A stretch of 64,000 bases of DNA from an uncultured Gammaproteobacteria bacterium (GTDB taxonomy: Bacteria; Patescibacteriota; Microgenomatia; Levybacterales; GWA1-39-11): NCBI GenBank assembly GCA_964511965.1, contig CAZEGF010000022.1, positions 12,101 to 76,100 of the forward strand. The letters run 5' to 3'. The notes under the pieces are model-generated. The model was not told where the DNA came from and did no database searches. It saw only the letters and a program-made list of their open reading frames with translations. Position numbers and translations under genes: made by a program. Shown here piece by piece: positions 1-53,399 of the stretch. The stretch's first letter is position 1; each line of letters opens with the position of its first letter.

Positions 1-209
1 AGTTCTATTCCATCTGCATTTGCATTTCCTTGATAGTATCTTTTTTTTGAATACCCTTCGGAATATTTATTGGTAAAAACAGAAGAGAGTGCAGATCTGA
101 CTTCAAGGGAAGCATAATTTTCAGATGGAATTAAAGTAATTGTATCTCTTTGCCTTTTGTCTTCTTTTTGAAGAAGAGTATAAACTTCAGGATCTTTTTG
201 GCTTAGCAT
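1..209 (-). CDS. glyA: Serine hydroxymethyltransferase, N-terminal part; the gene continues beyond the window start
   Basis: Reverse-strand translation from the ATG at 207-209 gives MLSQKDPEVYTLLQKEDKRQRDTITLIPSENYASLEVRSALSSVFTNKYSEGYSKKRYY, the classic SHMT N-terminus (IPSENY...TNKYSEGY). Confidence 0.8.
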   Translation of the reverse strand, partial: MLSQKDPEVYTLLQKEDKRQRDTITLIPSENYASLEVRSALSSVFTNKYSEGYSKKRYYQGNANADGIE

Positions 210-229
210 AATTTAGGGTATAGCTATTA

Positions 230-274
230 GGGTTTAAGCGAAGCTTGACCCTTGTGGGATAGCGTTTAGTTTAG
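230..274. repeat. About 45-bp dispersed repeat, copy 1 (gggtttaagcgaagcttgacccttgtgggatagcgtttagttt), in a divergent promoter region
   Basis: Near-identical copy at 15625-15668 with 2-3 mismatches. Both copies lie between divergently transcribed genes. Confidence 0.85.
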
Positions 275-1948: not shown

Positions 1949-2968
1949 TCATCTGTCGATGACACCTCCCCATTCTATAGCTGTAAATCCAATACGTTTT
2001 GGAGGAGTGGGTGGATCAAATAGTTTGGTTTCAAACTTCTCATCAACACCTTTAAAGTATGCGATAAACTGGATGAAGGTATCTGGTTTTGGTGAAATTT
2101 CAACATGATCAGTTCTTTCTTTTTCCTCGCGGTCTAAAATTGAGAAGAAAATATATTTTTTGTTAAGATCTGTCAAGCGGGGAGTCCAGTATTCAACGAA
2201 TTCTTCCGATTCGAAAGAATTAAGACCAAGTTTTTGTGTTTTAATTTTAAGTTCATTTCTTATGTTTTCGGTTTTAATAAACATTCCATTGTTGGGAGCA
2301 TTTAGCGTTTTTGATTCTGACTCGTAATAAAGCTCCCTGTAGTAATTACCTTGGTATTTCAAAACTCCGCTTGGCATGGCCAACACTCCAAACCAGCCAT
2401 TATTATATTCAGGAATACTTTCTACTATGTTTCCTGACACTGTAACATCAACAAAAGTAGGTTTTTCAGGGTACAGATAAATTACCGGTTTTCCCATGCA
2501 ATACCAATGGCATGACGGATCCTCTGAAGCACGCGCCTGACATTGAGGCGTGTCGCCTGTACATGTTGGATTTGCAAGTGGTGGGAAATTCCCATTGCAA
2601 TACAGTCCAATTGGTAGATTTGGATTACAGGTGCAACCTATCCTTTCCCCATAGTGAGGGCAGTAATTGCCTGTGGGAGTAGGGATAATTGTAATTCCCG
2701 GTTGTGTGGGAATTGGGGTAACTGCTGTTGGAGTTGGAGAATCAAAATCAAGATCTGTCATGTGTAGCCCTTTGCTATCTACCTGTTTGCTACCGGATGA
2801 CGTATACGTATTTGTATCTGAAATTGGAGATTTGGGGTGCTTGAAAAATCCAGTAAAGTTCATGATGACAAGAAGAACAAGCCCCATGAAAAAAAGAGAA
2901 AGAGCAGAAAAACCCTTCTGCTGTTTAGTAGACATAAGACAGTAGACATAAGACAGAAGTTTAATCAT
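1949..2968 (-). CDS. Secreted Cys/Pro-rich protein; true start may be the internal Met at about 2935
   Basis: 339-aa ORF with a TM/signal segment after MSTKQQKGFSALSLFFMGLVLLVIM. The first 11 codons are encoded by the hexamer repeat agacataagacag, so the start at 2968 is doubtful. Confidence 0.5.
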   Translation of the reverse strand: MIKLLSYVYCLMSTKQQKGFSALSLFFMGLVLLVIMNFTGFFKHPKSPISDTNTYTSSGSKQVDSKGLHMTDLDFDSPTPTAVTPIPTQPGITIIPTPTGNYCPHYGERIGCTCNPNLPIGLYCNGNFPPLANPTCTGDTPQCQARASEDPSCHWYCMGKPVIYLYPEKPTFVDVTVSGNIVESIPEYNNGWFGVLAMPSGVLKYQGNYYRELYYESESKTLNAPNNGMFIKTENIRNELKIKTQKLGLNSFESEEFVEYWTPRLTDLNKKYIFFSILDREEKERTDHVEISPKPDTFIQFIAYFKGVDEKFETKLFDPPTPPKRIGFTAIEWGGVIDR

Positions 2969-3029
2969 ATAAATAGTATAGAGCTTTTAACATTTCACTT
3001 CTACCTTATGACTTCTGACTTATAGCTTC

Positions 3030-3725
3030 TTATTTATAAACTACCGGGGGCTCTGTCGGGAAAACGCCATTGATGGGATAATTTACGATAAGAGTGCTTT
3101 TTTGAAGAACTATAACTTTTCCGCCGTTTCTATTGATCAAAGCAGTTGCAGGAGAGAATGATATTGAAGTTTTTGTGACATTTGTGTTTTTGGGTACAAA
3201 TGTAAGTACAGCTACTTTACCTTGCCCTTTTTGTAGGGGAGTTGTTGCGGCCATTTGAAGAGGAAGAGTTATAATCCCATGAACAGTGTCATTTGAAGAG
3301 GAAGATGTCTCAAAGGCGAGTGAAACTGTAGAATTTTTGTCTTTGAACTGGGTAAGTGTTACATTGTCAATTACATTGGGGTTATAGGCTATAGAAATAT
3401 TTGCCCCGGAGATTTCTTTGCCCCAGGTGTTAACATATACATCAATTGATTGCGTTTTTCCTGGCAATGCATTCACTGTGGTCGGATCAAAATAAACCGT
3501 CGCTTCAGGAGAAGTGAGATTTACTGTCGGTGTAGGGCCAGTGAAAATCCCATTTTTCCCACCTTTTCCGGTAATAAGTGCCACGACAAAAATTATAACT
3601 AGAAAAAGAACTATTGCCCCAGCCAAAAGAACGACTTTGTTTTTAATCAGTTTCTGCAAAGTAACTTCTGGCTTCTGGCTTTTAGCTTCTGGCTCCTGAC
3701 TTATGTTTTTATTTTCTTCTTCCAT
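3030..3725 (-). CDS. Membrane-anchored surface protein, possibly with an Ig-like or cohesin-like beta domain
   Basis: 231-aa ORF with N-terminal TM VVLLAGAIVLFLVIIFVVALI. The N-terminal tail SQEPEAKSQKPEV is encoded by the AGCCAGAAGC repeat. Confidence 0.5.
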   Translation of the reverse strand: MEEENKNISQEPEAKSQKPEVTLQKLIKNKVVLLAGAIVLFLVIIFVVALITGKGGKNGIFTGPTPTVNLTSPEATVYFDPTTVNALPGKTQSIDVYVNTWGKEISGANISIAYNPNVIDNVTLTQFKDKNSTVSLAFETSSSSNDTVHGIITLPLQMAATTPLQKGQGKVAVLTFVPKNTNVTKTSISFSPATALINRNGGKVIVLQKSTLIVNYPINGVFPTEPPVVYK

Positions 3726-6442: not shown

Positions 6443-6508
6443 AGTTTAAGCATACCACAGAGTCACGATATTCTTGATTCTTTATTCTTTATTTGCGTAC
6501 AATGAAGT

Positions 6509-7480: not shown

Positions 7481-7846
7481 TTAATAGGAGGATTTAAGAC
7501 TTTTAATTAGTCCATTTATCATCTTGTGTGTTTCTATAGTTAATTCCCAAGCTAAATCAAAATTCTTTTTCTCTATTAATCCTAAATCTCTTGAAGCAAT
7601 AAGTTGATTTTGGACTTCAACAACAGAACCTAATGCGATATTGTAAAATTGAACCTTTTCTCTTAATGAGGATCGTCCAAAACCCTCGGCAATATTGGAT
7701 GTAATGGAGAGTACGGCTCTTCTAATTTGCGAAGTTAAGCCAAATTGTTCTGAAGCTGGAAATCGAGAAGTTGCCTTGTAGACTAGAAGTAATAATGCAT
7801 GTCCTTTCTGCCAACAATTTAGATCAGTAAAGTTTTGAATTTTCAT
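7481..7846 (-). CDS. Four-helix-bundle protein (23S rRNA intervening-sequence protein family)
   Basis: WQKGHALLLLVYKATSRFP...ITSNIAEGFGRSS...FYNIALGSVVEVQNQL matches the IVS-protein / four-helix-bundle family. Confidence 0.8.
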   Translation of the reverse strand: MKIQNFTDLNCWQKGHALLLLVYKATSRFPASEQFGLTSQIRRAVLSITSNIAEGFGRSSLREKVQFYNIALGSVVEVQNQLIASRDLGLIEKKNFDLAWELTIETHKMINGLIKSLKSSY

Positions 7847-8858: not shown

Positions 8859-9311
8859 ATGAAAATAACAGCAGAACAAATAAAAACATTAAGAGAAAAA
8901 ACACAAGCCGGCTTTGCCGATTGTAAAAATGCTTTGGAAGAGGCAAAGGGGGATATGAAAAAAGCAGAAGATATTCTACGAAAAAAAGGCTTTGAAAAAG
9001 CAGCTAAAAAGAGCGATCGCGAAACAGGACAAGGTCTTGTTGAATCATATGTTCACCAGACAGGAAAAGTAGGAGTACTAGTTTCGTTATTGTGCGAAAC
9101 TGATTTTGTTGCAAGAACAGATGAATTTAAAACACTCGCTCATGAAGTTGCAATGCAAGTTGCTGCAATGAACCCAAAAGATACAGCAGCTTTGTTAAAA
9201 CAAGAATATATAAGAGATGGCAGTAAAACTATCAATGATTTAGTCACCGAAACAATCGCGAAATTAGGAGAAAATATCCAAATCGGAGACTTCAAGAGAT
9301 CAGAAATTTAG
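8859..9311 (+). CDS. tsf: Elongation factor Ts, short 150-aa form
   Basis: MKITAEQIKTLREKTQAGFADCKNALEEAKGDMKKAEDILRKKG is the EF-Ts N-terminal UBA-like domain. The rpsB-tsf order is conserved. The short length is typical of CPR-type EF-Ts. Confidence 0.9.
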   Translation: MKITAEQIKTLREKTQAGFADCKNALEEAKGDMKKAEDILRKKGFEKAAKKSDRETGQGLVESYVHQTGKVGVLVSLLCETDFVARTDEFKTLAHEVAMQVAAMNPKDTAALLKQEYIRDGSKTINDLVTETIAKLGENIQIGDFKRSEI

Positions 9312-9369
9312 TCTTTAGTCATTAGTCCTCAGACTTTAGTTTTTATCAGAATTTCTATATAATGAGTCA

Positions 9370-10482
9370 ATGCTGGTTACAGTTCTTGCTTTCATAATAA
9401 TCCTTTCCGTTCTTGTTATCGTCCACGAATTAGGTCATTTCTTTGTTGCCAAAAAATTAGGAATTAAGGTAGAAGAATTCGGAGTTGGGTTCCCACCGAG
9501 AGCTTTCAGTCGCAAAATAGGTGAGACCGTATATTCCATTAACTGGCTTCCTGTAGGAGGGTTTGTGAAATTGTATGGTGAAGATGCAGCAGGAGGGGGT
9601 TCGGTAAGAAGCAAGCAGCAAGAAGCAAGTAGCAAGGGTGTGGATGAGGTGGAGCGGGCATATTATGCAAGACCGCTGTGGCAAAGAATGGCAGTTGTTA
9701 CTGCTGGGGTTATCATGAATGTAATTTTGGCAATTGTTGTTATCTCATTTCTCTTTGCGACACAAGGAGTTCCACTACCTACGGACAACATTATTGTCAC
9801 TGAAGTTGCGCCTAATTCACCTGCTGCAATTGCCGGCATTTTAAAAAATGACAGAATATTAAAAATTGATGGTAAGCAAATAAAAACAACAGAATTATTT
9901 ATTTCACAAACCAAAAAACTCCGCGGACAAGAAGTGACTCTTATTGTAAAAAGAGGAGACAGCGAATTTACGACAAAGTTAACTCCACGGTTAAATGCTC
10001 CGAAAAATCAGGGTGCGATGGGGGTTGCAATATCCAACATCGAAGTTAAAAAATATTCCTGGTTTGAAGCGCCCATTTTTGGGACAATTGAGGCTGCAAA
10101 ATTTTCGTGGATGATAGCAAGTGGGCTTGGCACGATGATAGTTGATTTTGTTTTGCATGGGACAAAACCACAAGGAGTAGCAGGTCCTATTGGTGTTGCG
10201 CAGCTAACTGGTGAAGCAGTAAGAGCAGGGTGGTTTGCAGTATTGTGGTTCATGGCTCTTCTTTCCCTAAATTTAGCCGTTCTTAATATCTTACCTATTC
10301 CAGCCCTTGACGGAGGTCGTTTTTTCTTTATGATAATCGAAATGCTTACTGGCAAAAAAGTAAGTCCAAAATACGAAGCATATGCTCATGGTGTTGGGCT
10401 CGTTCTCCTACTTGGTCTTATGGCGGTCGTGACATTACTTGATATAGTTAGACTTCTGCAGGGGAAAAGCATAATACCCTAA
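9370..10482 (+). CDS. rseP: RIP (site-2) zinc metalloprotease RseP
   Basis: HELGHF motif, PDZ region and the LNLAVLNILPIPALDGG motif. An in-frame insertion SKQQEASSKG is encoded by the AGCAAG hexamer repeat at 9606-9634. Confidence 0.9.
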   Translation: MLVTVLAFIIILSVLVIVHELGHFFVAKKLGIKVEEFGVGFPPRAFSRKIGETVYSINWLPVGGFVKLYGEDAAGGGSVRSKQQEASSKGVDEVERAYYARPLWQRMAVVTAGVIMNVILAIVVISFLFATQGVPLPTDNIIVTEVAPNSPAAIAGILKNDRILKIDGKQIKTTELFISQTKKLRGQEVTLIVKRGDSEFTTKLTPRLNAPKNQGAMGVAISNIEVKKYSWFEAPIFGTIEAAKFSWMIASGLGTMIVDFVLHGTKPQGVAGPIGVAQLTGEAVRAGWFAVLWFMALLSLNLAVLNILPIPALDGGRFFFMIIEMLTGKKVSPKYEAYAHGVGLVLLLGLMAVVTLLDIVRLLQGKSIIP

Positions 10483-10536
10483 ATTGAAACTTGAGAGTTG
10501 AGATTTGAGAATTGAGAGACTATACTTTTTAAAATC

Positions 10537-11100
10537 ATGGATCAACAAATACAATCAGCAACAAAGCAACGCATGGAGCGGGCCCTTCAGGTCCTCAAAG
10601 ATGATTTTGGAACCGTAAAGACCGGTAAAGCAAATCCTCAACTTGTTGAAAATATAGTTATCAAAGCATATGGAGGATCGGCGATGCTTAAAGTAAATGA
10701 GCTTGCAACAATTCATGTGCAGGATGCATCGACGGTTGTAATTACTCCCTTTGACCATTCGGTAATTGGGGACATAGAACGCGGCATTTTCGACTCACAA
10801 ATGGGGCTTGGAATATCGGTTGATGGGAGTATTATCAGAATTACCGTTCCACCTTTGACTCAAGAACGTCGTGAAGAATTTGTAAAACTTGTTCATAAAA
10901 AAGCAGAGAATGGAAAAATTATGATCAGGCAAGCGAGAGCCGAATCAAATGATGAAATAGGAAAAATGAAAAAAAATAATGAGATTACAGAGGATGATGA
11001 AAAGAGGTTGGAAAAGGAAGTACAGAAATTAACGGACGAATATGTTGAAAAGATTGATGAGATAGAGAAAATGAAAGAGCAAGAGTTAATGACAGTATAA
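10537..11100 (+). CDS. frr: Ribosome recycling factor
   Basis: 187 aa with family-typical sequence (MERALQVLKDDFGTVKTGKANPQLVENI...) and conserved position after tsf/rseP. Confidence 0.95.
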   Translation: MDQQIQSATKQRMERALQVLKDDFGTVKTGKANPQLVENIVIKAYGGSAMLKVNELATIHVQDASTVVITPFDHSVIGDIERGIFDSQMGLGISVDGSIIRITVPPLTQERREEFVKLVHKKAENGKIMIRQARAESNDEIGKMKKNNEITEDDEKRLEKEVQKLTDEYVEKIDEIEKMKEQELMTV

Positions 11101-11186
11101 CTTCAGGAAATAGTAACTAGTGACTAGCAAATAGGTTCTGATATGAATAAACCTAGTTACTAATTACTAATCCCTATTTTACTATT

Positions 11187-11804
11187 ATGCGAATTCCAAA
11201 AGCATTAGAGCGTGTTGTAGAAAGTTTTGAGCGTCTTCCCGGTATTGGCCCTAAGTCGGCGCAACGATTGGGATTTTATTTACTGCATGTTCCCCAAAGT
11301 GATCTAGAAGATTTTGCCGACGCGCTTATAAATCTTAAGAAAAATACGAAAATGTGTGCGATTTGTTTTAATATCGGGACTACTGAACTTTGTGATGTAT
11401 GTGCAGATCCGGAGCGTGACAATGGAACTATTTGTGTAGTTGAAGATACTCTAGACGTTCTGGCATTTGAAAAGTCAGACAAATATAAAGGGGTATATCA
11501 CGTATTGCATGGAGTTGTTGATCCATTAAATTCTATCGGACCGGATGACATTTATATTCCACAACTGATGAAGAGGATCAAGCAGCAAGCAGCAAGTGGT
11601 AAGCAAATAGAAGAAATTATTATAGCTACAAATCCCACGATGGAGGGAGAAGCAACAGCTATGTATATTGTGAAAGGTATGAAGAACGAGGAATTAGGGA
11701 TTAAGATCAGTAGAATTGGGAGAGGATTGCCGGTCGGTGCAGATATTGAATATGCGGATGAAGTGACATTGGGTCGAGCTTTGGAAGGAAGAAGCGAATA
11801 CTAA
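11187..11804 (+). CDS. recR: Recombination protein RecR
   Basis: LPGIGPKSAQRLGFYLL HhH motif, C4 zinc finger (CAICFNIGTTELCDVCAD), Toprim IIATNPTMEGEATAMYI. In-frame IKQQAASGKQ insertion encoded by the hexamer repeat. Confidence 0.95.
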   Translation: MRIPKALERVVESFERLPGIGPKSAQRLGFYLLHVPQSDLEDFADALINLKKNTKMCAICFNIGTTELCDVCADPERDNGTICVVEDTLDVLAFEKSDKYKGVYHVLHGVVDPLNSIGPDDIYIPQLMKRIKQQAASGKQIEEIIIATNPTMEGEATAMYIVKGMKNEELGIKISRIGRGLPVGADIEYADEVTLGRALEGRSEY

Positions 11805-13415
11805 CTAACTTTGGCCATCTGTTCCGGTCGGGGCAAGTGGAGATGCTCCTGGAAAAGCAATGACGTTAGATGGAGCTTCACCTGCAGTTGCTTGAGTACC
11901 TCCAAGTGAATCCAGTCCTGTTGCTGGTGCTGATTCGGAAACTGATTGTTGCGCTTCACCTGGGAAAGCGAGTACGTTATTTACTTCTTTTGAATTTGGA
12001 ACAATTTCCAGCTTTGGAGTTTGTGGTAGACCTGCAGCGAGTGGGCTTGAGCCATCAACCATCCCTGGTCCAGTAGCAGAAGCATTTGGATCTGTTGGTG
12101 ACATACCACCGGGAACTGCAGTTACCGGAGCGGTTGGATCAACATCAGTGTTAGCAGTAGCTACAGCGGCATCAGCGACTTCACCGGTTGTAGCTGGTTC
12201 TGATCCGGTTTCAATTGGGATATCGTGGCCAACTTCTTCACTACTGTTTAATGCTTCAGTGGTAAAAGGTGGTTTGTCTGCTGCAGCAGCAGCACCATCT
12301 GCCATTGCTTTTCCTAATGCATCTCCATCAACTGCAGCATCTCCACTAACAACAGGGGCATCAGGATGTGATGCAGTCCCATCGACTGACCAATCAGGAG
12401 GAGCTTGCATTCCATCAGCGACAGCTCCCGGACCAGCATGAACAGCTTCATCATTTGCATCAGCGGATTGAATTGGTGCTTCAGGTTCTTCAACGTGAGT
12501 TTCTGCAACTGGTTCTACCGCTGGAACAGAGGCAACAGGAGTAGTTGTGACATCAGCAACAGATTCGACTGGAGTAGTGGTCGGAGCATCAGGAAGTGTG
12601 CTTTCCTCTTGCGCAGGTTCAGCAGTTGCGCTAGGTGTAAATTCTGCAGGCTTGTCTTCAGTAGTTACTTGGGCAACAGGTTCTGCAATTGATTCTTCTG
12701 CTTCAGCCATAGGTTCAACGGGTGGCTGAGGTACAACTTCCGGTTGAGATGTTCCAAGACTTGGTGCATCTGATGCAACAACTTCTGCTGGAGCAGGTGA
12801 AGATGCGACCACTCCGCCATTTTCTGGACTTGAAATAGAATTTTGGAATGGAACACCAGTCGCAACACCGGCAGCTGTTGCATCAGGTGTTGAGAGTCCA
12901 GCGTAATTATTCTCAGGTGTTGTTGCAGTGGGTGCTTCAAACTTTGGAGCAGAGGCACCATCTGCCGTCGCTCCATTAAGGTTTGCTACATCTGGAGTTT
13001 GAAGTGTCCCATTGCCTGTTGGTATCAAATGATCAGGTGGGGTCGCAACAGCTGCAACTTCTGGCTTTTTACTTTTAAGACCCATTCCTTCCAGTGCTCC
13101 ACCAATAACTTTTCCAAACAAACCTCGTCTTTGTTCGGTCACTGGTGGTTGGTTTTGAACATCTTTCTTCTCTTCAACCATTGCGTTGTGGGTTGCTATT
13201 ATTTCAGGTGTTTGAGGTGTACCAACAGGTTCAAGTCCTGTTAAGACAGCCGGATGTTCTCCTGTTGCCTCCATATCTTGAGTAAGAGTAGTCGATTGTG
13301 CATTCGGATCAGAAGGAGCAGCAACAGACGCTTCGGCAGCAGAACTTGGGGGTACTACACCGTCAACTGGTTGAACACTAGAATTAATATTAGGGGATTC
13401 CGGTTGAATATCCAT
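11805..13415 (-). CDS. Acidic low-complexity (Pro/Ala/Thr/Val/Glu-rich) protein, probably intrinsically disordered
   Basis: 536-aa ORF with no TM segment and a locally higher-GC, strongly biased composition. Internal repeat NV(L/I)AFPG. No recognisable domain. Confidence 0.45.
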   Translation of the reverse strand: MDIQPESPNINSSVQPVDGVVPPSSAAEASVAAPSDPNAQSTTLTQDMEATGEHPAVLTGLEPVGTPQTPEIIATHNAMVEEKKDVQNQPPVTEQRRGLFGKVIGGALEGMGLKSKKPEVAAVATPPDHLIPTGNGTLQTPDVANLNGATADGASAPKFEAPTATTPENNYAGLSTPDATAAGVATGVPFQNSISSPENGGVVASSPAPAEVVASDAPSLGTSQPEVVPQPPVEPMAEAEESIAEPVAQVTTEDKPAEFTPSATAEPAQEESTLPDAPTTTPVESVADVTTTPVASVPAVEPVAETHVEEPEAPIQSADANDEAVHAGPGAVADGMQAPPDWSVDGTASHPDAPVVSGDAAVDGDALGKAMADGAAAAADKPPFTTEALNSSEEVGHDIPIETGSEPATTGEVADAAVATANTDVDPTAPVTAVPGGMSPTDPNASATGPGMVDGSSPLAAGLPQTPKLEIVPNSKEVNNVLAFPGEAQQSVSESAPATGLDSLGGTQATAGEAPSNVIAFPGASPLAPTGTDGQS

Positions 13416-15307: not shown

Positions 15308-15624
15308 GAACTCCTATGTTACCATTCAAGGCTAAAATTGTCTAATTCACGCAGACTGCCCGAAGGGTATATGAATTGAAAATTGAGATTTAAGACTTGA
15401 GAATTGTTTTTGTACAAATAATAGCAACGAATCAAGGGTTTTATATAAATAAAAAATAACAAAACATATTCGCATTTTTGGTGTATATTTTGCACAGAAA
15501 AAGAATGTTTTAAACTACAATAACTTCTAGCTAATATCTATTAGATAATAGAATGTGCGGGGATAAAATTACCGCAATGATTCATTTTTTAAATAGATCA
15601 TAATAGCTCAGGGTTTAGTTGTTA

Positions 15625-15668
15625 GCGTTTAAGCGAAGCTTGACCCTTGTGGGATAGGGTTTAGTTGC
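15625..15668. repeat. About 45-bp dispersed repeat, copy 2 (gcgtttaagcgaagcttgacccttgtgggatagggtttagtt)
   Basis: Matches 230-274. Lies in the divergent region between 14204..15307 (-) and 15687..17285 (+). Confidence 0.85.
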
Positions 15669-17726: not shown

Positions 17727-17775
17727 GAGACTTAATTATAAATTAACTAAACGCTAAACGCTAATAGCTAAACGC

Positions 17776-18141: not shown

Positions 18142-18237
18142 AGTTAATTCTCAATGAAAATTAATTAAATGAAATCTAATTGAAAACTGGAAACTGAAAA
18201 ATGGAAACTTATATAAATAAACTGTATAATTGAACTC

Positions 18238-19146: not shown

Positions 19147-19220
19147 TAAATTGAGAGTTGAGATTTGATATTTGAGAATAGTAAAATAAGTATTCCAGAA
19201 AGCGAATCCCCGGTTTTTAT

Positions 19221-21056: not shown

Positions 21057-21106
21057 ATTTGAGATTGAAATTTTTTGGTAGTAACTCTACAATAATAATT
21101 GACACT

Positions 21107-21287
21107 TTAAATCAAGAGGAGGAGTAGAGTATTGGCTCGTTGATCCCTCCAGCAACCTTTCGGCAATCTCAAGGTAAACCCAGAGATCTGAAAAGGTGCT
21201 ACACCCAACCCTATTAAGGGAAGGATTAGCTTCGATTAAATCGGAGAATAAATAAAAACCTCTCTTTTAGGGAGGTTTTTTTGTGCC
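21107..21287 (+). ncRNA. Candidate small RNA or leader: promoter-like TTGACA-17-TAGAGT, about 140-nt hairpin-forming transcript, intrinsic terminator (cctctcttttagggagg + T7)
   Basis: Seen in sequence: -35/-10-like boxes at 21101-21132 and a terminator hairpin plus T-run at 21258-21287. Contains GGTGCT...GGGAAGGA reminiscent of SRP RNA, but not convincingly so. Confidence 0.25.
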
Positions 21288-26088: not shown

Positions 26089-26634
26089 TTAAGCATTCGG
26101 GTCTGGGGGTAAAAACTCTTCTCCTCCGCTATCGGGGGATTTAACATATTCTCCAGGTTTGAGCCATTCAACATAGGTGCAACCCGTTGCAGTCCTTGTT
26201 TTTGCATCCCAACCACTCGTTGAACATTTCTTCATTTTCTTACCGGCTGCTGTTGTATAAAGAACCAATTTGTTACCACACGTTGGACAATCTTCATCAA
26301 GTGCCTCGGTTGTACCATTTATCCATTCAACATAGTCGCATCCTGTTGCTTGCTTGGTCTCGGCATTCCATTGATTAGTAGAGCATTTCTTCATCTTTTT
26401 ACCAAAGCGGGTAACTACCATAACAAGAGGATTGCCACATTTTGGACATTTTTCATCCAATTCTTCAGGAGGAGTCTCTAACCATTTAACATAATCGCAC
26501 CCAACATTTTTTTTAGCTTCCTTGTCCCACGATCCGGTAGAACATCTCTGGAGTCGTCTTCCGGAAGGAGTGGTCGTTACTTCTGCAAGCGGGTTACCGC
26601 ATTTTGGACACTTTTCTTCAACCATGGAATTCAT
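26089..26634 (-). CDS. Protein made of three tandem topoisomerase-type C4 zinc ribbons
   Basis: Three repeats of CPKCGNPL...GKKMKKCST..W......TGC.YVEW. Confidence 0.6.
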   Translation of the reverse strand: MNSMVEEKCPKCGNPLAEVTTTPSGRRLQRCSTGSWDKEAKKNVGCDYVKWLETPPEELDEKCPKCGNPLVMVVTRFGKKMKKCSTNQWNAETKQATGCDYVEWINGTTEALDEDCPTCGNKLVLYTTAAGKKMKKCSTSGWDAKTRTATGCTYVEWLKPGEYVKSPDSGGEEFLPPDPNA

Positions 26635-27397: not shown

Positions 27398-27796
27398 ATG
27401 AAAAATAAACTAACTAAAGACATGAATTCAAAAGACATCACAAGCTGCTCATCTGTCAAGGTAACCCTTGAAGTAATGGGTGGAAAATGGAAACCACTTA
27501 TTATGTTTCTTCTTGTCGAGCGTACGATGCGATTTTCAGAATTGCAAAGGAATATTACCGGTATTACTCAGAAAATGCTGACAGAACAATTACGGGAATT
27601 AGAGCGTGATGGATTAGTCTCAAGAAAAGTATATCCTCAGGTTCCCCCAAAAGTTGAATATTCAATAACTACTTATGGTAGAACTCTTCTTCCGGTTCTT
27701 GAAACAATGCACGCTTGGGGAAAAAATCATCAGTCAAAAGACAGTAGTCATAAGACAGAAGCAAGGAAACAAATTCCCCTAGTTACTAGTTACTAA
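27398..27796 (+). CDS. HxlR-family winged-helix transcriptional regulator
   Basis: CSSVKVTLEVMGGKWKPLIMFLLVERTMRFSELQRNITGITQKMLTEQLRELERDGLV matches the HxlR family well. Confidence 0.8.
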   Translation: MKNKLTKDMNSKDITSCSSVKVTLEVMGGKWKPLIMFLLVERTMRFSELQRNITGITQKMLTEQLRELERDGLVSRKVYPQVPPKVEYSITTYGRTLLPVLETMHAWGKNHQSKDSSHKTEARKQIPLVTSY

Positions 27797-27816
27797 TCAC
27801 TATTTCCTATTTTTAC

Positions 27817-29235: not shown

Positions 29236-29361
29236 CTTGATCGTGGACAAGCGGATTTCATCCGCAACTTAAAACTTAAAACTTAAAGCCTCAAAAAATT
29301 ATTTTTGTTTTGAAGTTTGTAGTTTTTTATTTGTAGTTGCTACCGCCTGCCCACGATCAAG
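29236..29361. repeat. Imperfect 19-bp inverted repeat (cttgatcgtggacaagcgg / ccgcctgcccacgatcaag) flanking an AT-rich word spacer at the left edge of GC island 1
   Basis: Arms at 29236-29254 and 29343-29361 are reverse complements with 2 mismatches. Confidence 0.7.
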
Positions 29362-29397: not shown

Positions 29398-29586
29398 TTG
29401 ACGAACAAGATATTAGAAAGAGTCGCAAGGCTCATTGGCAAACGCGCCCACGAAGTTGGGCATGCTGCCGTTGAGTTCGGACATATTACGGTCCACGACA
29501 TCGAACGCGCGGCTGCACGCCGCAAGCCCAGGGAAAAAGCTGACAAAGCTCATCCCGCCATCGTCAACGACAAGTCCGTCAATTAG
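29398..29586 (+). CDS. Small protein P1 (about 62 aa) with a HEVGH...E..GH motif, in the GC-rich island
   Basis: Strong SD GGAGGAGG 6 nt upstream of the TTG at 29398. The track ORF 29377..29586 is in the same frame. The multi-frame ORFs of GC-rich DNA make this uncertain. Confidence 0.35.
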   Translation: MTNKILERVARLIGKRAHEVGHAAVEFGHITVHDIERAAARRKPREKADKAHPAIVNDKSVN

Positions 29587-29618
29587 GCGGGCGCCAAGTC
29601 CTACCCAGGAGAGTATAC

Positions 29619-29861
29619 ATGTCTCACGCAAATAGGCGAGGAATCGCAGGATTCCCCCGCCGACCGAAGACCAAACCGGCAAGCTACGGTAACACGCGTA
29701 TGATGCCTATCGTCAGGACTCCTGGCGAATTGGCGGCGCTCATGACCGAGCTTCCGGAACACGAAGCCCTTAATCGGGCCTGTATTTCGATCGAGGCTGT
29801 TTACGGACTCGGTGAGCCCGTACTCTTTCGGCCTCTCGACAGCATGTACTACCACCGCTAA
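29619..29861 (+). CDS. Small protein P2 (80 aa), GC-rich island
   Basis: RBS ggagagtatacATG. Same strand and operon layout with ppsA. Confidence 0.35.
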   Translation: MSHANRRGIAGFPRRPKTKPASYGNTRMMPIVRTPGELAALMTELPEHEALNRACISIEAVYGLGEPVLFRPLDSMYYHR

Positions 29862-29882
29862 CAGCGGCGCGAAGAAAGAAAC

Positions 29883-30086
29883 ATGTCAGACCACCATCGA
29901 AGGACGAGGCGTCAGCACTACGCTGACGAATCAAACCGAGATTCGTGGGAATTTGCCAAAGCCTTTCGTCAAGCCCGTTATTTCATAAAGACGGGTCAAC
30001 TCGGGCGAGGTCAAGCTCTCATCCAACCATTCCGCGGCATACGCCGTGGTTCCATGGAACAAATCCAAAACGAGGAGAACACTTAG
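29883..30086 (+). CDS. Small basic protein P3 (67 aa), GC-rich island
   Basis: ORF ends 1 nt before the ppsA start. Its last codons provide the GAGGAG SD for ppsA. Confidence 0.35.
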   Translation: MSDHHRRTRRQHYADESNRDSWEFAKAFRQARYFIKTGQLGRGQALIQPFRGIRRGSMEQIQNEENT

Positions 30087-32405
30087 TTGGGCAAGACAGC
30101 AGTAATCGAAAGCGAACTTTCTCAGAAGACCATCTACTGGTTTTCGGAGGTAAGTCGCGATGACCTGGGAGTCGTCGGAGGGAAGGGCGCCAACCTTGGC
30201 GAACTGACCAAAGCCGGCATTCCGGTCCCACCAGGGTTCGTCGTTTCGGCGGACACATATTTTCGCTTCATCCAGATGAACAGCCTCGAGTCGCTCATCA
30301 AGAAGGAGCTTTTCGGCCTCGATGTCCACGACAGCAGGGTGCTCGATGAGCGCGCGGCCAACATTCGGCAGCGCTTCATGGATGCTCCCATGCCGCGGTC
30401 TATCGCATCGGAAATCATGGACGCGTACCGCGAACTGGGCGAAGGCCCTGTTGCGGTCCGGTCGTCGGCAACAGCCGAAGACCTGCCCGAAGCATCTTTT
30501 GCCGGTCAACAGTCGACGTACCTTAACGTCGTCGGCCCAGAGAACGTTGTTCTCGCCGTCCAGGCGTGCTGGGCATCCCTCTTTGAGGGACGCGCCATCT
30601 TCTACCGGGAAGAAGCAGGATACGACCACATGAAGGTCGGACTTGCCGTCCCGGTCCAACGGATGGTGCAAAGCGAGATCTCAGGCGTCATGTTCACGGT
30701 CGAACCCGTGACGAGCGACCCTAAGAAGATCACAATCGAGGCTGTTTACGGTCTCGGAGAAGGGATTGTTTCGGGTGAGATCAGCCCGGATCTGTACATG
30801 ATCGACAAGCAGTCTCTTCAAATCACTGATCAGACCGTCACTCCACAGCCCAAAATGATTGCAAGGGCGCCGGAGTCAGACGGAAGCCATGAGGGAGCTA
30901 ACTCGTGGCAAGACGTTCCCGAGCATCTGCAGGAAAAGCAAAAGCTCACGGACAATGAGATCCACGAACTTGCCGCTATCGGCAAGGCCGTGGAAGAATA
31001 CTACGGAAGTCATCAAGACATCGAATGGGCCTATGAGGGCGGTAAGTTCTACCTCACTCAAGCACGCCCGGTGACGACCATGACTGAAGAACAACACGCT
31101 GATGTAACGGAACACGAAGAGGAGATCGCACCGGTCATCCTCAAAGGTCAGCCGGCTAGCCCTGGAGTAGGGCACGGACCGGTCCGTATCATCACCGATC
31201 CGAAAGACATCGACCAGGTCATGCAAGGCGACGTTCTAGTTGCTGAGATGACTACTCCGGATTTCGTTCCGGCGATGAAACGAGCTTCGGCCATCATTAC
31301 CGAACGCGGTGGAAGGACCTGCCACGCGGCCATTGTGTCACGCGAGCTGGGGATTCCCTGCGTCGTCGGAGTCAAAGGTGCTACCCAAGAGCTAAAGCCA
31401 GACCAGCAGGTTTCGGTTGACGGCTCGCAAGGTCTCATCTACAACGGTGAGGCGAAAACACGCCTGGCATGGGATCAGAGGCGGAGAAAACAACTCCTCC
31501 GAAAGTCCACAATAAAGACCACTACCAGACTCTACGTCAACCTCGCCGAGCCTGAGCTAGCCGAAGTCGTTGCTATGCGCAACGTCGACGGCGTCGGTCT
31601 TTTGCGCGCCGAATTCATCGTCGCGCAAATCAACCAGCACCCGAAGAAATACGTCGAGGACGGACAGGGTGCTGAGTACACACGGCTTCTTGCGGAAGGT
31701 ATCCGTAAGTTCTGCGAAGCCTTCAAGGGTCGTCCAGTCGTTTACCGACTGACCGACTTCAAGACGAACGAGTACGCCAACCTTCGGGGAGGCGCCAAGT
31801 TCGAGGCTACCGAAGAAAACCCGATGATCGGATTCCGCGGGGCATCCCGTTATATCCAGGACACGGAAGTCTTCATGCTAGAAGTCGAGGCGATCAAGCA
31901 AGTCCGCGAGGAATTCAAGAACCTGTACGTCATGGTTCCCTTCGTCCGGACTGAAGCTGAGCTGAAAGGCGTCAAGAATCTCCTGGCCGAGCAAGGTTTG
32001 GTCAGGGGAGTGGACGACTTCAAGCTCTGGATGATGGTGGAAGTTCCCTCCAACGTTATCATCCTCGACCGCTTCATCGACGTTGGTATCGATGGGATCT
32101 CCATCGGCTCCAACGACTTGACCCAGCTGGTTCTGGGCATCGATCGCGACAGTGAGGCTCTCGCCGATACCTTCGACGAGCGCAACGAAGCTGTCATGGC
32201 CGCCATCGAAACTGCGGTCACAGTCGCACGGCGTCGTGGTATTACCGCGAGCATCTGCGGCCAGGCACCCTCCGTTTACCCGGAGGTTACCGAAAAGCTG
32301 GTGGAGTGGGGGATCACCTCCGTCTCCGTTAGTCCTGACATGATCGAGCAGACACGCGAGATCATCCACAACGCCGAGGTCAAGCTCGGCCGCGCTCCCC
32401 AGTAG
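30087..32405 (+). CDS. ppsA: Phosphoenolpyruvate synthase / pyruvate, water dikinase (PEP-utilising enzyme)
   Basis: N-terminal PPDK_N motif (GGKGANLGEL...GIPVPPGFVVSADTY), phosphohistidine domain (GGRTCHAAIVSRELGIPCVVG) and a C-terminal PEP-utilising TIM barrel. TTG start with GAGGAG SD. The region is clearly GC-rich. Confidence 0.85.
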   Translation: MGKTAVIESELSQKTIYWFSEVSRDDLGVVGGKGANLGELTKAGIPVPPGFVVSADTYFRFIQMNSLESLIKKELFGLDVHDSRVLDERAANIRQRFMDAPMPRSIASEIMDAYRELGEGPVAVRSSATAEDLPEASFAGQQSTYLNVVGPENVVLAVQACWASLFEGRAIFYREEAGYDHMKVGLAVPVQRMVQSEISGVMFTVEPVTSDPKKITIEAVYGLGEGIVSGEISPDLYMIDKQSLQITDQTVTPQPKMIARAPESDGSHEGANSWQDVPEHLQEKQKLTDNEIHELAAIGKAVEEYYGSHQDIEWAYEGGKFYLTQARPVTTMTEEQHADVTEHEEEIAPVILKGQPASPGVGHGPVRIITDPKDIDQVMQGDVLVAEMTTPDFVPAMKRASAIITERGGRTCHAAIVSRELGIPCVVGVKGATQELKPDQQVSVDGSQGLIYNGEAKTRLAWDQRRRKQLLRKSTIKTTTRLYVNLAEPELAEVVAMRNVDGVGLLRAEFIVAQINQHPKKYVEDGQGAEYTRLLAEGIRKFCEAFKGRPVVYRLTDFKTNEYANLRGGAKFEATEENPMIGFRGASRYIQDTEVFMLEVEAIKQVREEFKNLYVMVPFVRTEAELKGVKNLLAEQGLVRGVDDFKLWMMVEVPSNVIILDRFIDVGIDGISIGSNDLTQLVLGIDRDSEALADTFDERNEAVMAAIETAVTVARRRGITASICGQAPSVYPEVTEKLVEWGITSVSVSPDMIEQTREIIHNAEVKLGRAPQ

Positions 32406-32524
32406 GAGCCATAACGTGAGCGTATACACGTTTATACGAAGCCAGATTAGACCGACCGCGAGGTCGGAAATTCCGCCGGACTTATGTCCGGCACCCCCTC
32501 CGCGTATAGCGGGCAACCCAACCT

Positions 32525-32562: not shown

Positions 32563-32823
32563 AATTCACCAATTCCTAATCACTAATTACTACTCCAAAG
32601 GAGCAAGCTTTGCTTATTCACTAGTCACTATTTTGCGGGTTGACTTCAGTTTTTTTTAAAGCCTACAATTAAATAAGAAGAAAGTAGCAAGAAGCAAGTA
32701 GAAAGGGAAAATATGTTCTCTTAATACTTTATTCTTTATTCTTTATTCTCCCAAAATGTATTAGCTTTTGGACCGACTGGGACTAAAGCCAAGGAATGCA
32801 ACATTTAAAATATATAACGAAGC

Positions 32824-34068
32824 ATGTATTACTTCAGCGAGCTTATTAATAAAAAAGTAGTCAATGAAAACGGTAAGTCATTGGGTAAGCTTAAAGACTT
32901 CCTTTTTCTTGCTGAAGAATCTCCAAAAATCACAAAATTATTTGTAAAAAAAAGCCCCAGACGAAGTTATGCAATTCTTATAAAAGAGATAAAAACAATT
33001 GACGATAGAATAGTTGTTAATAAAGATTTTGTTGAAAAAGATATTGCAGAGCGGGAGTTTTCAATTGCCCACAATTTACTAAATAGGCAAATAATTGATG
33101 TTAAGGGCGGAAAGGTAGTTAGGATAAATGATATTGCGATTCAAGATAAGCAGTCGGTACCAACCGGTACTGTAACAGACGGCAATCAAGAGTATTATAT
33201 TGCAGGAGTAGACGTTGGATTTCGAGCAATTCTGCGGTGGTTTAAGTTGGAAAAGCCAACAGTTCCCCTCTATAAATTTTTCAAAATATATTCTCATCCA
33301 CACTTTCTATCATGGGGAGATATTGAACCACTAGAGTTGGCTCGTGGTAACGTGCAATTGAAAAAAGATATCGGAGACCTTGAACGGATGCGCCCTGAAG
33401 ATCTGGCTGATTACCTTGAGAAGACGAATATTAGAAATGTTAATAAAATTATTACCGGTCTTGATGATGAATATGCGGCCGATGTTATCGAGGATCTTAA
33501 TATTAATTATCAGACGGCTCTATTTAAAAGATTTGCACCCGAGCAAGCAACCCGTCTTATTGACTTTCTTGAACCAGATGAAGCAGTTGATATTCTTTTG
33601 ACTCTTCCACGGGAGAAAAGGAACGAAATCCTAGATAGTCTACCAAAAGGTAAAGGAGAAGAGCTTCGGGAGCTTATGAAGTATTCCAAAACTTCTGTTG
33701 GAAAGCTGCTAAATCCAGAATTTATAACAGTTAGTTCTGAAGCAACCGGATCTCAAGCGTTAGGTGTCGTAAAAGAAAAACTACCCGAATCTCCATTTTC
33801 TTCCTATATATATGCACTCAATCAGGAAGGTCATCTGGTCGGAGTTGTTGAATTATCTGATTTGTTGTTGCATGAAGGGGATGAGCAGGTTTTTAAATTT
33901 ATGGAGCAAGATGTTGTTGTCGCACATTTAACTACACCTCAAGAAATAGCACTTAAAAGGATGCTCAAATATAAATTATATGCACTCCCTGTAATTGAAG
34001 ACAATCAAAAAATGATAGGAGTAGTGACCTTTGATGACATGATAGAGGATGTAGTGGATAAGCTATAG
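32824..34068 (+). CDS. PRC-barrel + MgtE-N + tandem CBS domain protein with no membrane domain
   Basis: MgtE N-domain-like (DLADYLEKTNIRNVNKIITGLDDEYAADVIEDL...EAVDILLTLPREKRNEILDSLP) followed by a CBS pair. No TM helices. Confidence 0.65.
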   Translation: MYYFSELINKKVVNENGKSLGKLKDFLFLAEESPKITKLFVKKSPRRSYAILIKEIKTIDDRIVVNKDFVEKDIAEREFSIAHNLLNRQIIDVKGGKVVRINDIAIQDKQSVPTGTVTDGNQEYYIAGVDVGFRAILRWFKLEKPTVPLYKFFKIYSHPHFLSWGDIEPLELARGNVQLKKDIGDLERMRPEDLADYLEKTNIRNVNKIITGLDDEYAADVIEDLNINYQTALFKRFAPEQATRLIDFLEPDEAVDILLTLPREKRNEILDSLPKGKGEELRELMKYSKTSVGKLLNPEFITVSSEATGSQALGVVKEKLPESPFSSYIYALNQEGHLVGVVELSDLLLHEGDEQVFKFMEQDVVVAHLTTPQEIALKRMLKYKLYALPVIEDNQKMIGVVTFDDMIEDVVDKL

Positions 34069-34093
34069 GAGAATAAAGTGGTGAGAATAAAGT

Positions 34094-44423: not shown

Positions 44424-45118
44424 GTCGAACGGAAAATTTCGACGTTGAATGGGTCGGGATAAGGATTACTTACCTTTTCAAATCTCTCTTCCCACATACG
44501 GGGGAATGCACTAACCTCTTTCATACCACACGTAACAACAGTAATAGGTTTGGTTTCCGCAATTTTTCGCAAATTATTTTCTACTGCAAATTGAGATTTC
44601 TGAGCATCGGGCCAAAAGGGATTGAACATAAAAAATATGGTTCCGTCATCCATTTCAGTTCTTGCCGCATCTCCATGAATAAATGTAGCATTTTCAATTT
44701 CAAAATGTTCTTTTATACCAGTTGCAGCTTCAAATCTATGTTCAACGAATTCTATACCTTTAAATGTTGCATCAGTTGTAAGAGCACCGTATAAAGTGAA
44801 GCGTCCATATCCTGAACCAATATCATAGACAATATCATCTTTAGTAGGATTGACTTCATGTAAAATAAGCTGCGCAAGTCTGTACGGAATTCCTTGATAA
44901 ATATAATCTCTATATGTCAGGCCATATCTGTCAGGGTATTGATGGTTGGATATGTATTCCTGTCCATAATAAGATATAAATCTCGGGATTCCCAAAAGGG
45001 TATCCAAAAAACACGAATCTATTTTCCCATCACCTTGATCCATGGCTTGAACTATATCTCGCAAATTCTGCGGTTCTTGTGATAACGCTTCTTGTAAAGG
45101 CCGATAATATTCAGACAT
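44420..45118 (-). CDS. Class I SAM-dependent methyltransferase
   Basis: Motif I VYDIGSGYGRF. Start taken at the ATG giving MSEYYRPLQ. The track ORF extends to a TTG at 45160. Confidence 0.65.
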   Translation of the reverse strand: MSEYYRPLQEALSQEPQNLRDIVQAMDQGDGKIDSCFLDTLLGIPRFISYYGQEYISNHQYPDRYGLTYRDYIYQGIPYRLAQLILHEVNPTKDDIVYDIGSGYGRFTLYGALTTDATFKGIEFVEHRFEAATGIKEHFEIENATFIHGDAARTEMDDGTIFFMFNPFWPDAQKSQFAVENNLRKIAETKPITVVTCGMKEVSAFPRMWEERFEKVSNPYPDPFNVEIFRST

Positions 45119-45241
45119 GAAGTGGATTATAGCTATGTTGACAGTATGATACAAGTTCAATAAGTATTTTGATTTTTACCTAATTTCCATCGAATATGAA
45201 TTTGTCCAAAAGATAGTTATACTAAATATATCCATGCAATT

Positions 45242-46159: not shown

Positions 46160-46260
46160 CAAAGCAAGAAAAGCTTGGCTACGCTAAGCAAAGCCTGTGG
46201 GTTTTGAGAAAGCGATTCTTGTAAAGGCCGATAATATTCAGACATGGAGGAAATAATATC
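46160..46260 (-). pseudogene. Duplicated 5' fragment of the methyltransferase gene (MSEYYRPLQESLSQNPQAL...) fused to an aagcttggctacgctaagc repeat
   Basis: About 30 bp (cttgtaaaggccgataatattcagacatg) are identical to 45091-45119. The encoded N-terminus matches the first 19 aa of the MTase, then diverges into the dispersed repeat. Confidence 0.55.
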
Positions 46261-48879: not shown

Positions 48880-48940
48880 CTTTAAACGTTAAACTTAAAA
48901 CCTCAAACTGAAATTTTGTTGTGGGAAATTATATAGAAGG

Positions 48941-49930: not shown

Positions 49931-49959
49931 CCCGTTTTCAATATTGTTTTAATGTGATA

Positions 49960-52437: not shown

Positions 52438-52448
52438 AAAACAAAAAA

Positions 52449-53380: not shown

Positions 53381-53399
53381 CAAAATTGCACGGTGATAT

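Follow-up and report, generated by a model that had tools for sequence, protein, structure and literature searches.

This analysis concerns a short tract (10478–10520) in the spacer between two genes of a 64,000-nucleotide stretch of the contig CAZEGF010000022.1 (positions 12,101 to 76,100 of the forward strand), from an assembly assigned to the Levybacterales; we refer to this whole stretch as the window. The tract is situated between the stop codon of rseP, which codes for a Peptidase_M50/PDZ protein (9370–10482), and the start of frr (10537–11100), and reads AATTGAAAC-TTGAGAG-TTGAGAT-TTGAGAA-TTGAGAG. The first-pass annotation had listed it with other low-complexity intervals, said to be built from a small vocabulary of 6–13-nt words and to occupy nearly every gene boundary, and had offered a lineage-specific expansion of microsatellites or miniature inverted-repeat transposable elements (MITEs), or else a terminator or nucleoid signal, as explanations. 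We find that these tracts are real, statistically overwhelming and best restated as tandem heptanucleotide repeats.

We defined a strict tract by at least 12 of 14 self-matches at a given offset and took composition-preserving shuffles of 200-bp blocks as the null. The window holds 22 strict tracts of period 7 against 0.4 in the shuffles; periods 3–6, 8–13 and 15 yield 0–4 tracts apiece, and the only other period enriched is 14, i.e., twice seven, with 15 tracts. Likewise, the majority of the 82 rows returned by Tandem Repeats Finder for the window have a period of 7 or 14. The units often alternate between two 7-nt variants, giving rise to period 14, and exact 14-nt duplications are also present (e.g., 50421–50450). 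Of the 23 listed intervals, 20 match themselves best at an offset of 7 or 14 nt and have a period-7 shuffle p ≤ 0.005; the weak intervals are 60805–60850, 59528–59560 and 34060–34090, the last having a period of 14 and constituting the left arm of a hairpin. Thus, the tracts exist where they had been placed, but their units are all of 7 nt, often in two alternating variants, and do not range from 6 to 13 nt. On a simple gene map based on open reading frames (ORFs), a local period-7 signal (p < 0.01) is seen in 21 of the 50 spacers of at least 25 nt (~40%) and a signal of period 5, 6, 8 or 9 in none of them; hence, many spacers carry arrays, but "nearly every gene boundary" was too generous. 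The spacers are 63% A+T, intergenic DNA amounts to about 13% of the window, and the arrays constitute much of the spacer DNA in this small, tightly packed genome.

The flagged tract and further arrays in spacers or at gene ends are listed below with no strand assigned; handles such as L001 denote loci of relatives or strains and those such as D8 dispersed families of arrays.

1787–1825: GCTNCTA array (exact period 14) directly upstream of a minus-strand start codon; Tandem Repeats Finder and period-7 scan
2927–3038: AGACAnA and CTTCTNA arrays spanning the end of a gene and its spacer; 2930–2959 is 90% identical to 27732–27761 (D4)
6469–6494: TTCTTNA array (right-arm type only) upstream of a VWA gene; families D5/D7; supplies TTGATT 18 nt before TACAAT
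9306–9329: TTTAGTC array encoding the final residues and stop of tsf; period-7 scan; partly common to L002
10489–10518: TTGAGAN x4 array in the rseP–frr spacer (the flagged tract); single arm, unstructured, fold z +0.5; 90% identical to 19148–19177
15373–15402: degenerate TTGAGAN/TTGAAAA array in a divergent spacer; same dispersed family (D8), 80%
17747–17771: CTAAACG x3.5 array between two minus-strand genes; same word also in L001, L003, L005 and L010
18142–18237: GAAAACT/GGAAACT arrays in a divergent spacer, unstructured; Tandem Repeats Finder, folding and period-7 tests
19151–19175: TTGAGAN array directly 3' of the stop codon of a rhodanese-domain gene; spacer fold z −3.5
27779–27802: CTAGTTA/CTAATCA array at the end of an HxlR-family gene; 93% identical to 11152–11179 (D11)
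32571–32602: ACTAATN array downstream of the GC-rich island with the pyruvate phosphate dikinase (PPDK) gene; Tandem Repeats Finder and period-7 test
48878–48913: AACTTAA-type degenerate array after a HIT-family gene; Tandem Repeats Finder and period-7 test
56111–56132: AGAATTG array across the ybaB stop codon; Tandem Repeats Finder and period-7 scan
58500–58534: ACTAATC x5 array that stops 1 nt short of a start codon; fold z +1.4
61516–61584: AATTTAA and TAAAAAT arrays in a divergent spacer; fold z −0.2

On folding, the single-armed arrays at 10483, 58470, 9300, 2969, 18142, 61500 and 17727 proved unstructured. The arrays of the window form dispersed families of 28–34 nt that keep the order of their variant units, the best-matched copies being 90–93% identical: 10488–10517 and 19148–19177 (90%), 11152–11179 and 27778–27805 (93%), and 34106–34138 and 50920–50952 (91%). 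The proposal that the same word families recur at several spacers is therefore upheld by this comparison.

At least seven spacers of the window are built of inverted arrays, which form long, mismatched, AU-rich hairpins (fold z −2.8 to −5.3 at 8790, 11101, 17286, 19147, 29255, 50380 and 50850). The hairpin-forming features are:

11101–11186, plus strand: TAGTNAC and ACTAATN inverted arrays, hairpin of the frr–recR spacer; z −3.7; spacer of 8 nt in L001 and L002
17286–17387, no strand assigned: inverted TTTTCAN and TGAGAAN arrays in a convergent-gene spacer, 36-bp imperfect hairpin; −29.7 kcal/mol, z −5.3
29255–29345, plus strand: AACTTAA x3 and TTTGTAG inverted arrays, hairpin at the edge of a GC-rich island; z −4.4
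32665–32765, plus strand: R1 hairpin (AAGNAGN arm and CTTTATT arm); covariance model score 90.9 bits; another heptamer hairpin in the 98.6%-identical L175 and L176
34060–34147, plus strand: R1 hairpin between mgtE-like and Nramp genes, its right arm overlapping the called Nramp start; −22.7 kcal/mol against −13.6 for the antisense strand
50378–50462, plus strand: R1 hairpin of the rpsU–ybeY spacer; z −2.8; L180 and L186 have a non-homologous hairpin of 84 nt instead, whereas the divergent L183 background shares the element
50842–50961, plus strand: R1 hairpin of the ybeY–dnaX spacer; z −3.75

The four R1 hairpins (32665, 34060, 50378 and 50842; 21–29% GC) align over both arms and share imperfections. 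Their consensus stem has 23 pairs, with AAG:CUU pairing every 7 nt and arms that are ~75% complementary; compensatory changes are seen in 0 of the 23 pairs, and, when compared with the terminal repeats of MITEs, the arms are inverted but the ends are not sharply defined. The R1 covariance model also finds matches at non-orthologous sites in L004, L005 and L008, and within the rseP ORF of L071 and L078. The array hairpins as a group have AU-rich, mismatched stems of 23–36 bp without a consistent U-tract, and none in the window combines a GC stem with a T-run. A scan of 1–20 kb for canonical terminators returned 17 sites against 15.3 expected, none of them at array spacers, and Rfam and tRNA scans of the window found no known RNA family at the tracts. 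Thus, the view that the tracts are mostly not hairpin terminators is right in that none is canonical, but it passed over the folding of seven spacers and of 34060, the tract at 32670 being in the family of the latter. In seven of eight window hairpins (the seven with significant z and 34060), folding is more stable on the sense strand, the exception being 11101; over the relatives, this strand comparison, which exploits G–U pairs as a test of function at the RNA level, gave 12 against 9 and was not significant. Among co-directional spacers of the relatives, 26% of those with an array are strongly folded against 10% of those without (2.6 times). An inverted partner array within 150 nt was found for 38 of 253 arrays, as against 29 and 23 in composition-matched controls, a weak enrichment.

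Arrays are not confined to spacers. With the crude ORF-based gene calls on which the in-gene counts rest, 8 of the 22 strict tracts of the window lie inside called ORFs (3665, 6395, 9606 in rseP, 11574 in recR, 34118, 51152 and 52097 in dnaX, and 59312). Those in named genes are:

9606–9637, plus strand: in-frame AAGNAGC array of the hypervariable rseP loop; over 34 nt, 9605–9638 shares 91% identity with the intergenic 32674–32707 (D1)
11574–11599, plus strand: CAAGCAG array in frame in recR; Tandem Repeats Finder and period-7 scan
51134–51211, plus strand: 78 nt of the dnaX zinc-finger loop, bearing an array, in place of 18 nt in 99%-identical sister strains, for a net gain of 60 nt in frame; the array itself spans 51152–51203
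52057–52118, plus strand: GACAGAA/GTCAGAA array in the dnaX linker; an AAGNATT array instead in L180

The same families thus occur in loops of RseP, RecR and DnaX and in spacers, in agreement with the suggestion that the arrays are the substrate for in-frame insertions. On the sense strand, the in-gene arrays are A-rich and carry TCAA 142 times against 10 for TTGA, an excess that filtering against stop codons would yield. In a separate observation, the hypervariable rseP loop of L071 (7115–7230), L078 (5265–5370) and L055 contains a complete inverted-array hairpin of ~75 nt, translated in frame as SSKYKVSSIKKD.ILNTKY.I.NT, which recalls the insertions of Rickettsia palindromic elements. A 64-nt repeat dispersed in the window (208–271 and 15603–15666, 88% identical; flanked by GGGTTTA / TAAACCC words) has a core, GCTTGACCCTTGTGGGATAG, closely matching an 18-nt segment (TTGACCCCTGTGGGGATA) of the dnaX loop in L180, L182 and L184. 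As a widespread element this core was rejected: beyond the copies of the 64-nt repeat and the dnaX loops of the sisters, it is absent from the fetched loci.

The distribution of the arrays was studied in 80 loci of relatives (1.30 Mb) and in 0.94 Mb from unrelated bacteria; the latter had been fetched in a metagenome scan with DnaX, which gave only distant bacteria (≤43% identity) and was reused as a negative control. In reference genomes, the relatives by RseP are metagenome-assembled genomes of Candidatus Levybacteria/Levyibacteriota, with 88% to 50% amino-acid identity. There are 231 period-7 tracts in the relatives (1.8 per 10 kb) as against 38 in the unrelated set (0.4 per 10 kb), where the count is no higher than for periods 9 or 12. 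Other periods from 4 to 12 account for 4–67 tracts in the relatives, the multiples of 3 being explained by coding repeats. In the pooled 1.3 Mb of relatives, exact two-copy tandems of period 7 number 264 against 105 expected, and those of at least 2.5 copies 108 against 0 expected, with no excess for periods 5 and 8. The proposed lineage specificity is therefore confirmed, as a trait that is Levybacteria-wide but patchy: on the RseP tree, array density is clade-correlated, yet ranges from 0 to 6.2 per 10 kb, with some whole clades near 0 and others at 3–6 per 10 kb. L064, L039 and L051 belong to a rich clade and L020, L021 and L022 to a nearly array-free one, with L018, L029, L053 and L066 also in clades that lack arrays, and even sister genomes differ (L001 4.8 against L002 0.5, and L023 2.4 against L025 0 per 10 kb). 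Pooled, 127 tracts are intergenic and 117 genic; hence, given the small share of intergenic DNA (only ~13% in the window), tracts are predominantly intergenic, with several dispersed unit families. The 253 tracts of all genomes comprise 117 unit types after canonicalization for strand and rotation; accordingly, the small vocabulary holds within the genome of the window, in the form of its dispersed families, but not across genomes. A universal core motif (CTN-AA, or AAG/CTT every 7 nt) was considered and rejected, as the dinucleotides of the 253 arrays mirror genome biases; the residual biases are a mild enrichment of TTG, TGA and GAA and a depletion of ATG and TAT.

Tandem-repeat analysis and inspection of the relatives' spacers, both of which the first-pass annotation had recommended, thus reveal period-7 arrays in the window and in its relatives; its refuting condition for random low complexity, an absence of the words from related genomes or a lack of orientation or position bias, gave a divided outcome, as the relatives do have the words but orientation bias is absent. 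At orthologous spacers the words differ. The rseP–frr spacer has TTGAGAN x4 in the window, AATTTTT/AAATTTA words in L001 and L003, GAATAAA/TTCTTGA arrays in L004 and L005, with an R1-type hairpin in L005, and no array in L002; across the relatives it varies from 0 to 1207 nt, is shorter than 30 nt in about half, and is strongly folded in 2 of 30. In L012, the same spacer (11085–11200) has a tandem repeat with a period of ~16 (CCAATATACAAATAAN) rather than heptamers. Likewise, the frr–recR spacer, an 86-nt hairpin in the window, is 8 nt long in L001 and L002 and holds hairpins of other words in L003, L004 and L010. With lengths of 0–8 nt in close relatives, these spacers are dispensable, which speaks against a terminator or nucleoid signal.

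Between strains, two kinds of change were observed. First, copy number may change in place and by whole units: CAATTCT at 53189–53198 is present once in the window and in three tandem copies in L180, L182 and L184, a 14-nt change. Second, entire cassettes are replaced. The spacer 32674–32823 is swapped wholesale for a different heptamer hairpin at 98.4–98.6% strain identity, and the 83-nt rpsU–ybeY hairpin for a non-homologous one of 84 nt, the hairpins at 34060 and between ybeY and dnaX being unchanged in the same strain comparisons. In L183, ybeY is only 83.5% identical, yet the rpsU–ybeY cassette is of the window type (96%), and conversion reaches only ~8 nt into either flank. The replacement of the dnaX linker in L180 has a right flank that is ~14% diverged, which indicates the homologous import of a divergent allele; at least part of the block exchange is thus ordinary recombination between diverged alleles. 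No indels were found among eight near-identical full-length strain loci (0–2 mismatches each) and no gaps in four same-species loci (L171–L174, 100% match). Phase-variable contingency repeats were accordingly rejected as an identity for the arrays, the near-identical strains being without copy-number variation. A true variable-number repeat of another kind lies upstream of rpsU (50044–50096): the 20-nt TAAGCAAAGCTTGGCTACGC, with 2.7 copies in the window, 3.7 in L182 and 4.7 in L180, and a related single copy at 46166–46198.

Orientation and position were examined for 104 arrays between co-directional genes. Their sense strands are composed of A 0.406, T 0.389, C 0.108 and G 0.097. Single arrays are strongly purine-rich or pyrimidine-rich, with 33 of the former and 32 of the latter on the sense strand, and no overall bias relative to the direction of transcription was detected in these 104 arrays. 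The suggested check for orientation bias thus came back negative and, with the strands evenly split and A equal to T, a directional terminator or nucleoid signal is not supported. The sole directional hint comes from arrays that have a start codon no more than 45 nt downstream, in which TTGA outnumbers TCAA by 16 to 6. An array TTGAGA or TTGATT stands 17–18 nt from −10-like hexamers at 10498, 19158 and 6474, the TTGAGA of the flagged tract being 17 nt upstream of TATACT, and the arrays 58500–58534, 50932–50952 and 1787–1825 end 1–5 nt from a start codon. A role as three-frame stop codons was rejected, because units with a stop are symmetric between the sense (83 of 104) and antisense (81 of 104) strands, as expected for AT-rich heptamers. 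Shine-Dalgarno motifs are rare in the window: with even weak ones counted at −22 to −4, they precede 12 of 71 genes. Good −10 hexamers are also found only 6–10 nt before the ATG of rseP, the VWA gene and the rhodanese-domain gene (examples are at 9355–9360, 6498–6503 and 18225–18230). Judged from these sequence motifs, the rarity of the former and closeness of the latter suggest that initiation might be leaderless or independent of Shine-Dalgarno motifs. With so few Shine-Dalgarno motifs, and with canonical terminators not in excess over the 20 kb scanned, it would be no surprise if this genome used unconventional signals.

Several observations jointly point to a mutational product: the register is strictly and exclusively 7 nt, tandems are in excess from two copies upwards, an array has changed by 14 nt in place, coding context and strand make no difference, and the spacers are dispensable. 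The dispersed families, hairpin gains and cassette swaps show block-wise copying or exchange of arrays in addition. Hence, we propose, with somewhat better than even confidence, that the spacer words are heptanucleotide simple-sequence repeats arising from a lineage mutational process that duplicates DNA in a 7-nt register and spread by recombination. Briefly, the following mechanism may be envisaged. A single heptamer would be duplicated via strand slippage or template switching as DNA is replicated or repaired. The resulting array would grow or shrink in steps of 7 or 14 nt while gaining point changes (e.g., the TTGAGAG/T/A forms), and would survive only where selection tolerates it, i.e., in gene spacers, which might themselves be largely array-created, and in disordered protein loops, where only the stop-codon-free orientation would persist. 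Short-patch recombination could then copy arrays between loci and exchange them between strains, giving rise to the 28–34-nt families and the inverted hairpin pairs. Some hairpins or TTGA arrays may secondarily be used as structures at RNA 3' ends or as −35 or upstream promoter elements, without such use maintaining the class. The idea of a microsatellite expansion, on this evidence of a strict period, exact 14-nt duplications and the one-to-three-copy difference of CAATTCT, was well founded.

Several observations weigh against this proposal. Slippage alone fails to explain unlinked multi-unit copies that share variants (the four R1 hairpins, and families D1, D2, D4, D8 and D11), or the presence of a complete, two-armed frr–recR hairpin of 86 nt where both closest relatives have 8 nt. 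Further, the greater frequency of folding in array-bearing spacers, together with the usual sense-strand stability of the window hairpins, hints at some selection for structure. At least 10 assemblies at ~100% identity lack any copy-number change, so that the arrays are not hypermutable contingency repeats.

A rival explanation is that the tracts, those with two arms at any rate, are miniature mobile palindromes akin to MITEs, REPINs or Rickettsia palindromic elements, with arms that happen to consist of heptads; an enzyme encoded elsewhere would move them in trans to gene boundaries and, now and then, into genes in frame. The shared imperfections on both arms of the four R1 copies, the recurrence of R1 at non-orthologous sites and inside rseP ORFs of relatives, the orthologous spacers with or without a whole hairpin, the cassette replacement between close strains, the transfer of a window-type cassette into the L183 background with only short converted flanks, and a density that is patchy and burst-like between sister genomes all speak in its favor. 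However, comparisons of filled and empty sites show no duplicated flank that would mark a target-site duplication; whole spacers or loops are replaced rather than inserted into. Nor do the Pfam matches of genes called over 537–62437 include a transposase (whether Y1 or REP-associated tyrosine transposase) or a reverse transcriptase. The majority of arrays are single-armed and fall into too many unit types, the period-7 excess already exists at two copies, a copy-number change in place is observed, and the diverged flank of the L180 linker points to ordinary homologous import. The MITE-like character is thus retained only as regards the homologous hairpins and their presence or absence at orthologous spacers, no defined ends or target-site duplications having been found, nor any transposase among those Pfam matches; we hold this explanation to be unlikely.

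A further and likewise doubtful alternative is that Levybacteria, and possibly other lineages of the candidate phyla radiation, possess previously undescribed heptad-built cassettes, either single or of two inverted arrays of about four heptads, at gene boundaries and in linkers. These would be spread by a dedicated or specific copying process, their hairpins would substitute for terminators or mRNA ends, and the 7-nt register would reflect a molecular ruler. If this were true, the ruler (a polymerase, nuclease or binding protein) could be identified by comparing array-rich with array-free sisters.

Less probable still, in our estimate, is that the arrays exist as functional cis-elements, with the hairpins acting as AU-rich terminators or as structures that stabilize or process mRNA ends, and the single arms as platforms for a protein with about 7 nt per site (of the cold-shock-domain or S1-like kind) or as −35 or upstream promoter elements. 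The lack of enrichment of canonical terminators in 1–20 kb, with none at the array spacers, speaks for such a role. Hairpins of unrelated words but similar size occupy the frr–recR spacer in the window, L003, L004 and L010, and swapped hairpins are also similar in size (83 and 84 nt for rpsU–ybeY, 106 and 99 nt for ybeY–dnaX). The sense-strand stability in the window, the TTGA preference near downstream starts and the spacing of TTGAGA/TTGATT from −10-like hexamers fit as well, and protein binding has been proposed for TAACTGA heptamers upstream of start codons (MacGregor 2015, PMC4679880). Nevertheless, overall orientation bias is absent, the strand difference in folding is not significant over the relatives, just about a quarter of array-bearing co-directional spacers fold strongly, spacers are missing or shorter than 30 nt in many close relatives, identical array families sit within coding sequence, and the R1 stem is devoid of compensatory changes. 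A primary role as a directional signal is therefore disfavored, though some hairpins or TTGA arrays may have been put to use secondarily. Finally, chance low complexity of AT-rich intergenic DNA or an assembly artefact is scarcely credible: the spacers are indeed AT-rich and the unit dinucleotides mostly mirror genome-wide biases, but the shuffles and the exclusivity of period 7 rule out the former, and identical arrays in independent assemblies from several samples and studies the latter.

The arrays have several implications. They mark where close strains differ structurally, which matters for metagenome binning, strain resolution and gene calling; some of them supply stop codons, C-terminal tails and apparent N-termini. 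They serve as raw material for hypervariable low-complexity loops of essential proteins (RseP, DnaX and RecR). Their occurrence in an ultra-small, tightly packed genome of the candidate phyla radiation means that the 7-nt register is not tied to the large genomes of cyanobacteria or proteobacteria, and array-rich and array-free sister lineages (L001/L002 and L023/L025) could show what sets the 7-nt ruler.

The window has other features besides the arrays. Its only Rfam match is an S-adenosylmethionine (SAM) riboswitch (RF00162, 46.3 bits; 21106–21231, plus strand) in front of a small ORF; the Rfam and tRNA scans gave no tRNA or rRNA genes in the window. GC-rich islands (50–57% GC against ~37% elsewhere) lie at 29400–32500, 49000–50000, 52400–54200 and 12000–13000, and one of them includes the pyruvate phosphate dikinase gene (30087–32405). 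The 49–50 kb island has a 98-nt near-tandem duplicate (49269–49366 and 49426–49523, 88%), and the islands at 49–50 and 52.4–54.2 kb align poorly between strains that are otherwise 99% identical. The family of 23S rRNA intervening-sequence proteins (PF05635), represented by a stand-alone gene at 7481–7846 (minus strand), includes accessory proteins of diversity-generating retroelements; as noted above, no reverse transcriptase was seen among the Pfam matches of the genes called over 537–62437. A gene rich in zinc ribbons (26089–26634, minus strand) contains internal direct repeats of 159 nt (26159/26318; 26265/26424/26586), and a 71-nt repeat that includes CTTCTTGTAAAGGCCGATAATATTCAGACATG (45061–45131 and 46188–46258, 80% identical) possibly represents a duplicated 5' region.

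Among known systems, intrinsic terminators are alike in placing hairpins between co-directional or convergent genes; they differ from the array stems, which are of 23–36 bp, AU-rich (21–29% GC in R1), mismatched and without a consistent U-tract. The palindromic elements of Rickettsia, reportedly the subject of work by Ogata and colleagues in 2000, offer a second comparison. To these may be added the repetitive extragenic palindromic (REP) and REPIN elements (Bertels and Rainey 2011, PMC3116915) and the small dispersed repeats of Nostoc, reportedly described by Elhai et al. 2008. All are short dispersed palindromes at gene boundaries, present or absent at orthologous sites, with the Rickettsia elements and others occasionally inserted in frame into genes, as is the R1-type hairpin in rseP of L071 and L078. 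In contrast, the arms of the window's arrays are heptad-periodic, of many families and mostly single, with undefined ends and no transposase seen.

Closer are the direct repeats of the heptamer TAACTGA in marine Beggiatoaceae, Cyanobacteria and Bacteroidetes (MacGregor 2015, PMC4679880), which likewise form intergenic arrays of 2–6 copies, many abutting starts that lack a Shine-Dalgarno motif. Those repeats have one dominant word, are forward and lie upstream of genes, whereas the window has many words, no bias, and arrays equally after stops or in genes. The arrays do not, therefore, belong to this class, being orientation-neutral and only in part abutting starts.

Since 1990, heptanucleotide repeats have been known from a few bacterial phyla as a curiosity without explanation. 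Literature searches turned up no account of heptamer repeats in genomes of the candidate phyla radiation or Patescibacteria. The short tandemly repeated repetitive (STRR) sequences of heterocystous cyanobacteria are said to have been described by Mazel and colleagues in that year; their consensus units include CCCCAGT, TTGGTCA and CAACAGT. The arrays of the window are not STRR sequences proper, as the host belongs to the Levybacteria and the units are different and AT-rich. They also differ from them in residing in a small packed genome, in being often paired as inverted hairpin arrays, in occurring in frame in the essential rseP, recR and dnaX, and in their documented cassette exchange between strains. 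Yet STRR sequences and long heptanucleotide repeats have in common with them tandem 7-nt units in several families per genome, a preference for intergenic DNA, a sporadic phylogenetic spread, the lack of an established function and a proposed origin in slippage over ~7 nt. In simple-repeat-rich genomes, heptanucleotides are the commonest long repeats, and slippage over the ~7 nt contacted by the polymerase has been proposed (Mrazek et al. 2007, as summarised in MacGregor 2015, PMC4679880). With their head-to-tail 7-nt units, at lengths and frequencies above chance, the Levybacteria arrays have the properties of such long simple-sequence repeats, and it is the STRR sequences and heptanucleotide-dominated long simple-sequence repeats that they resemble most closely.

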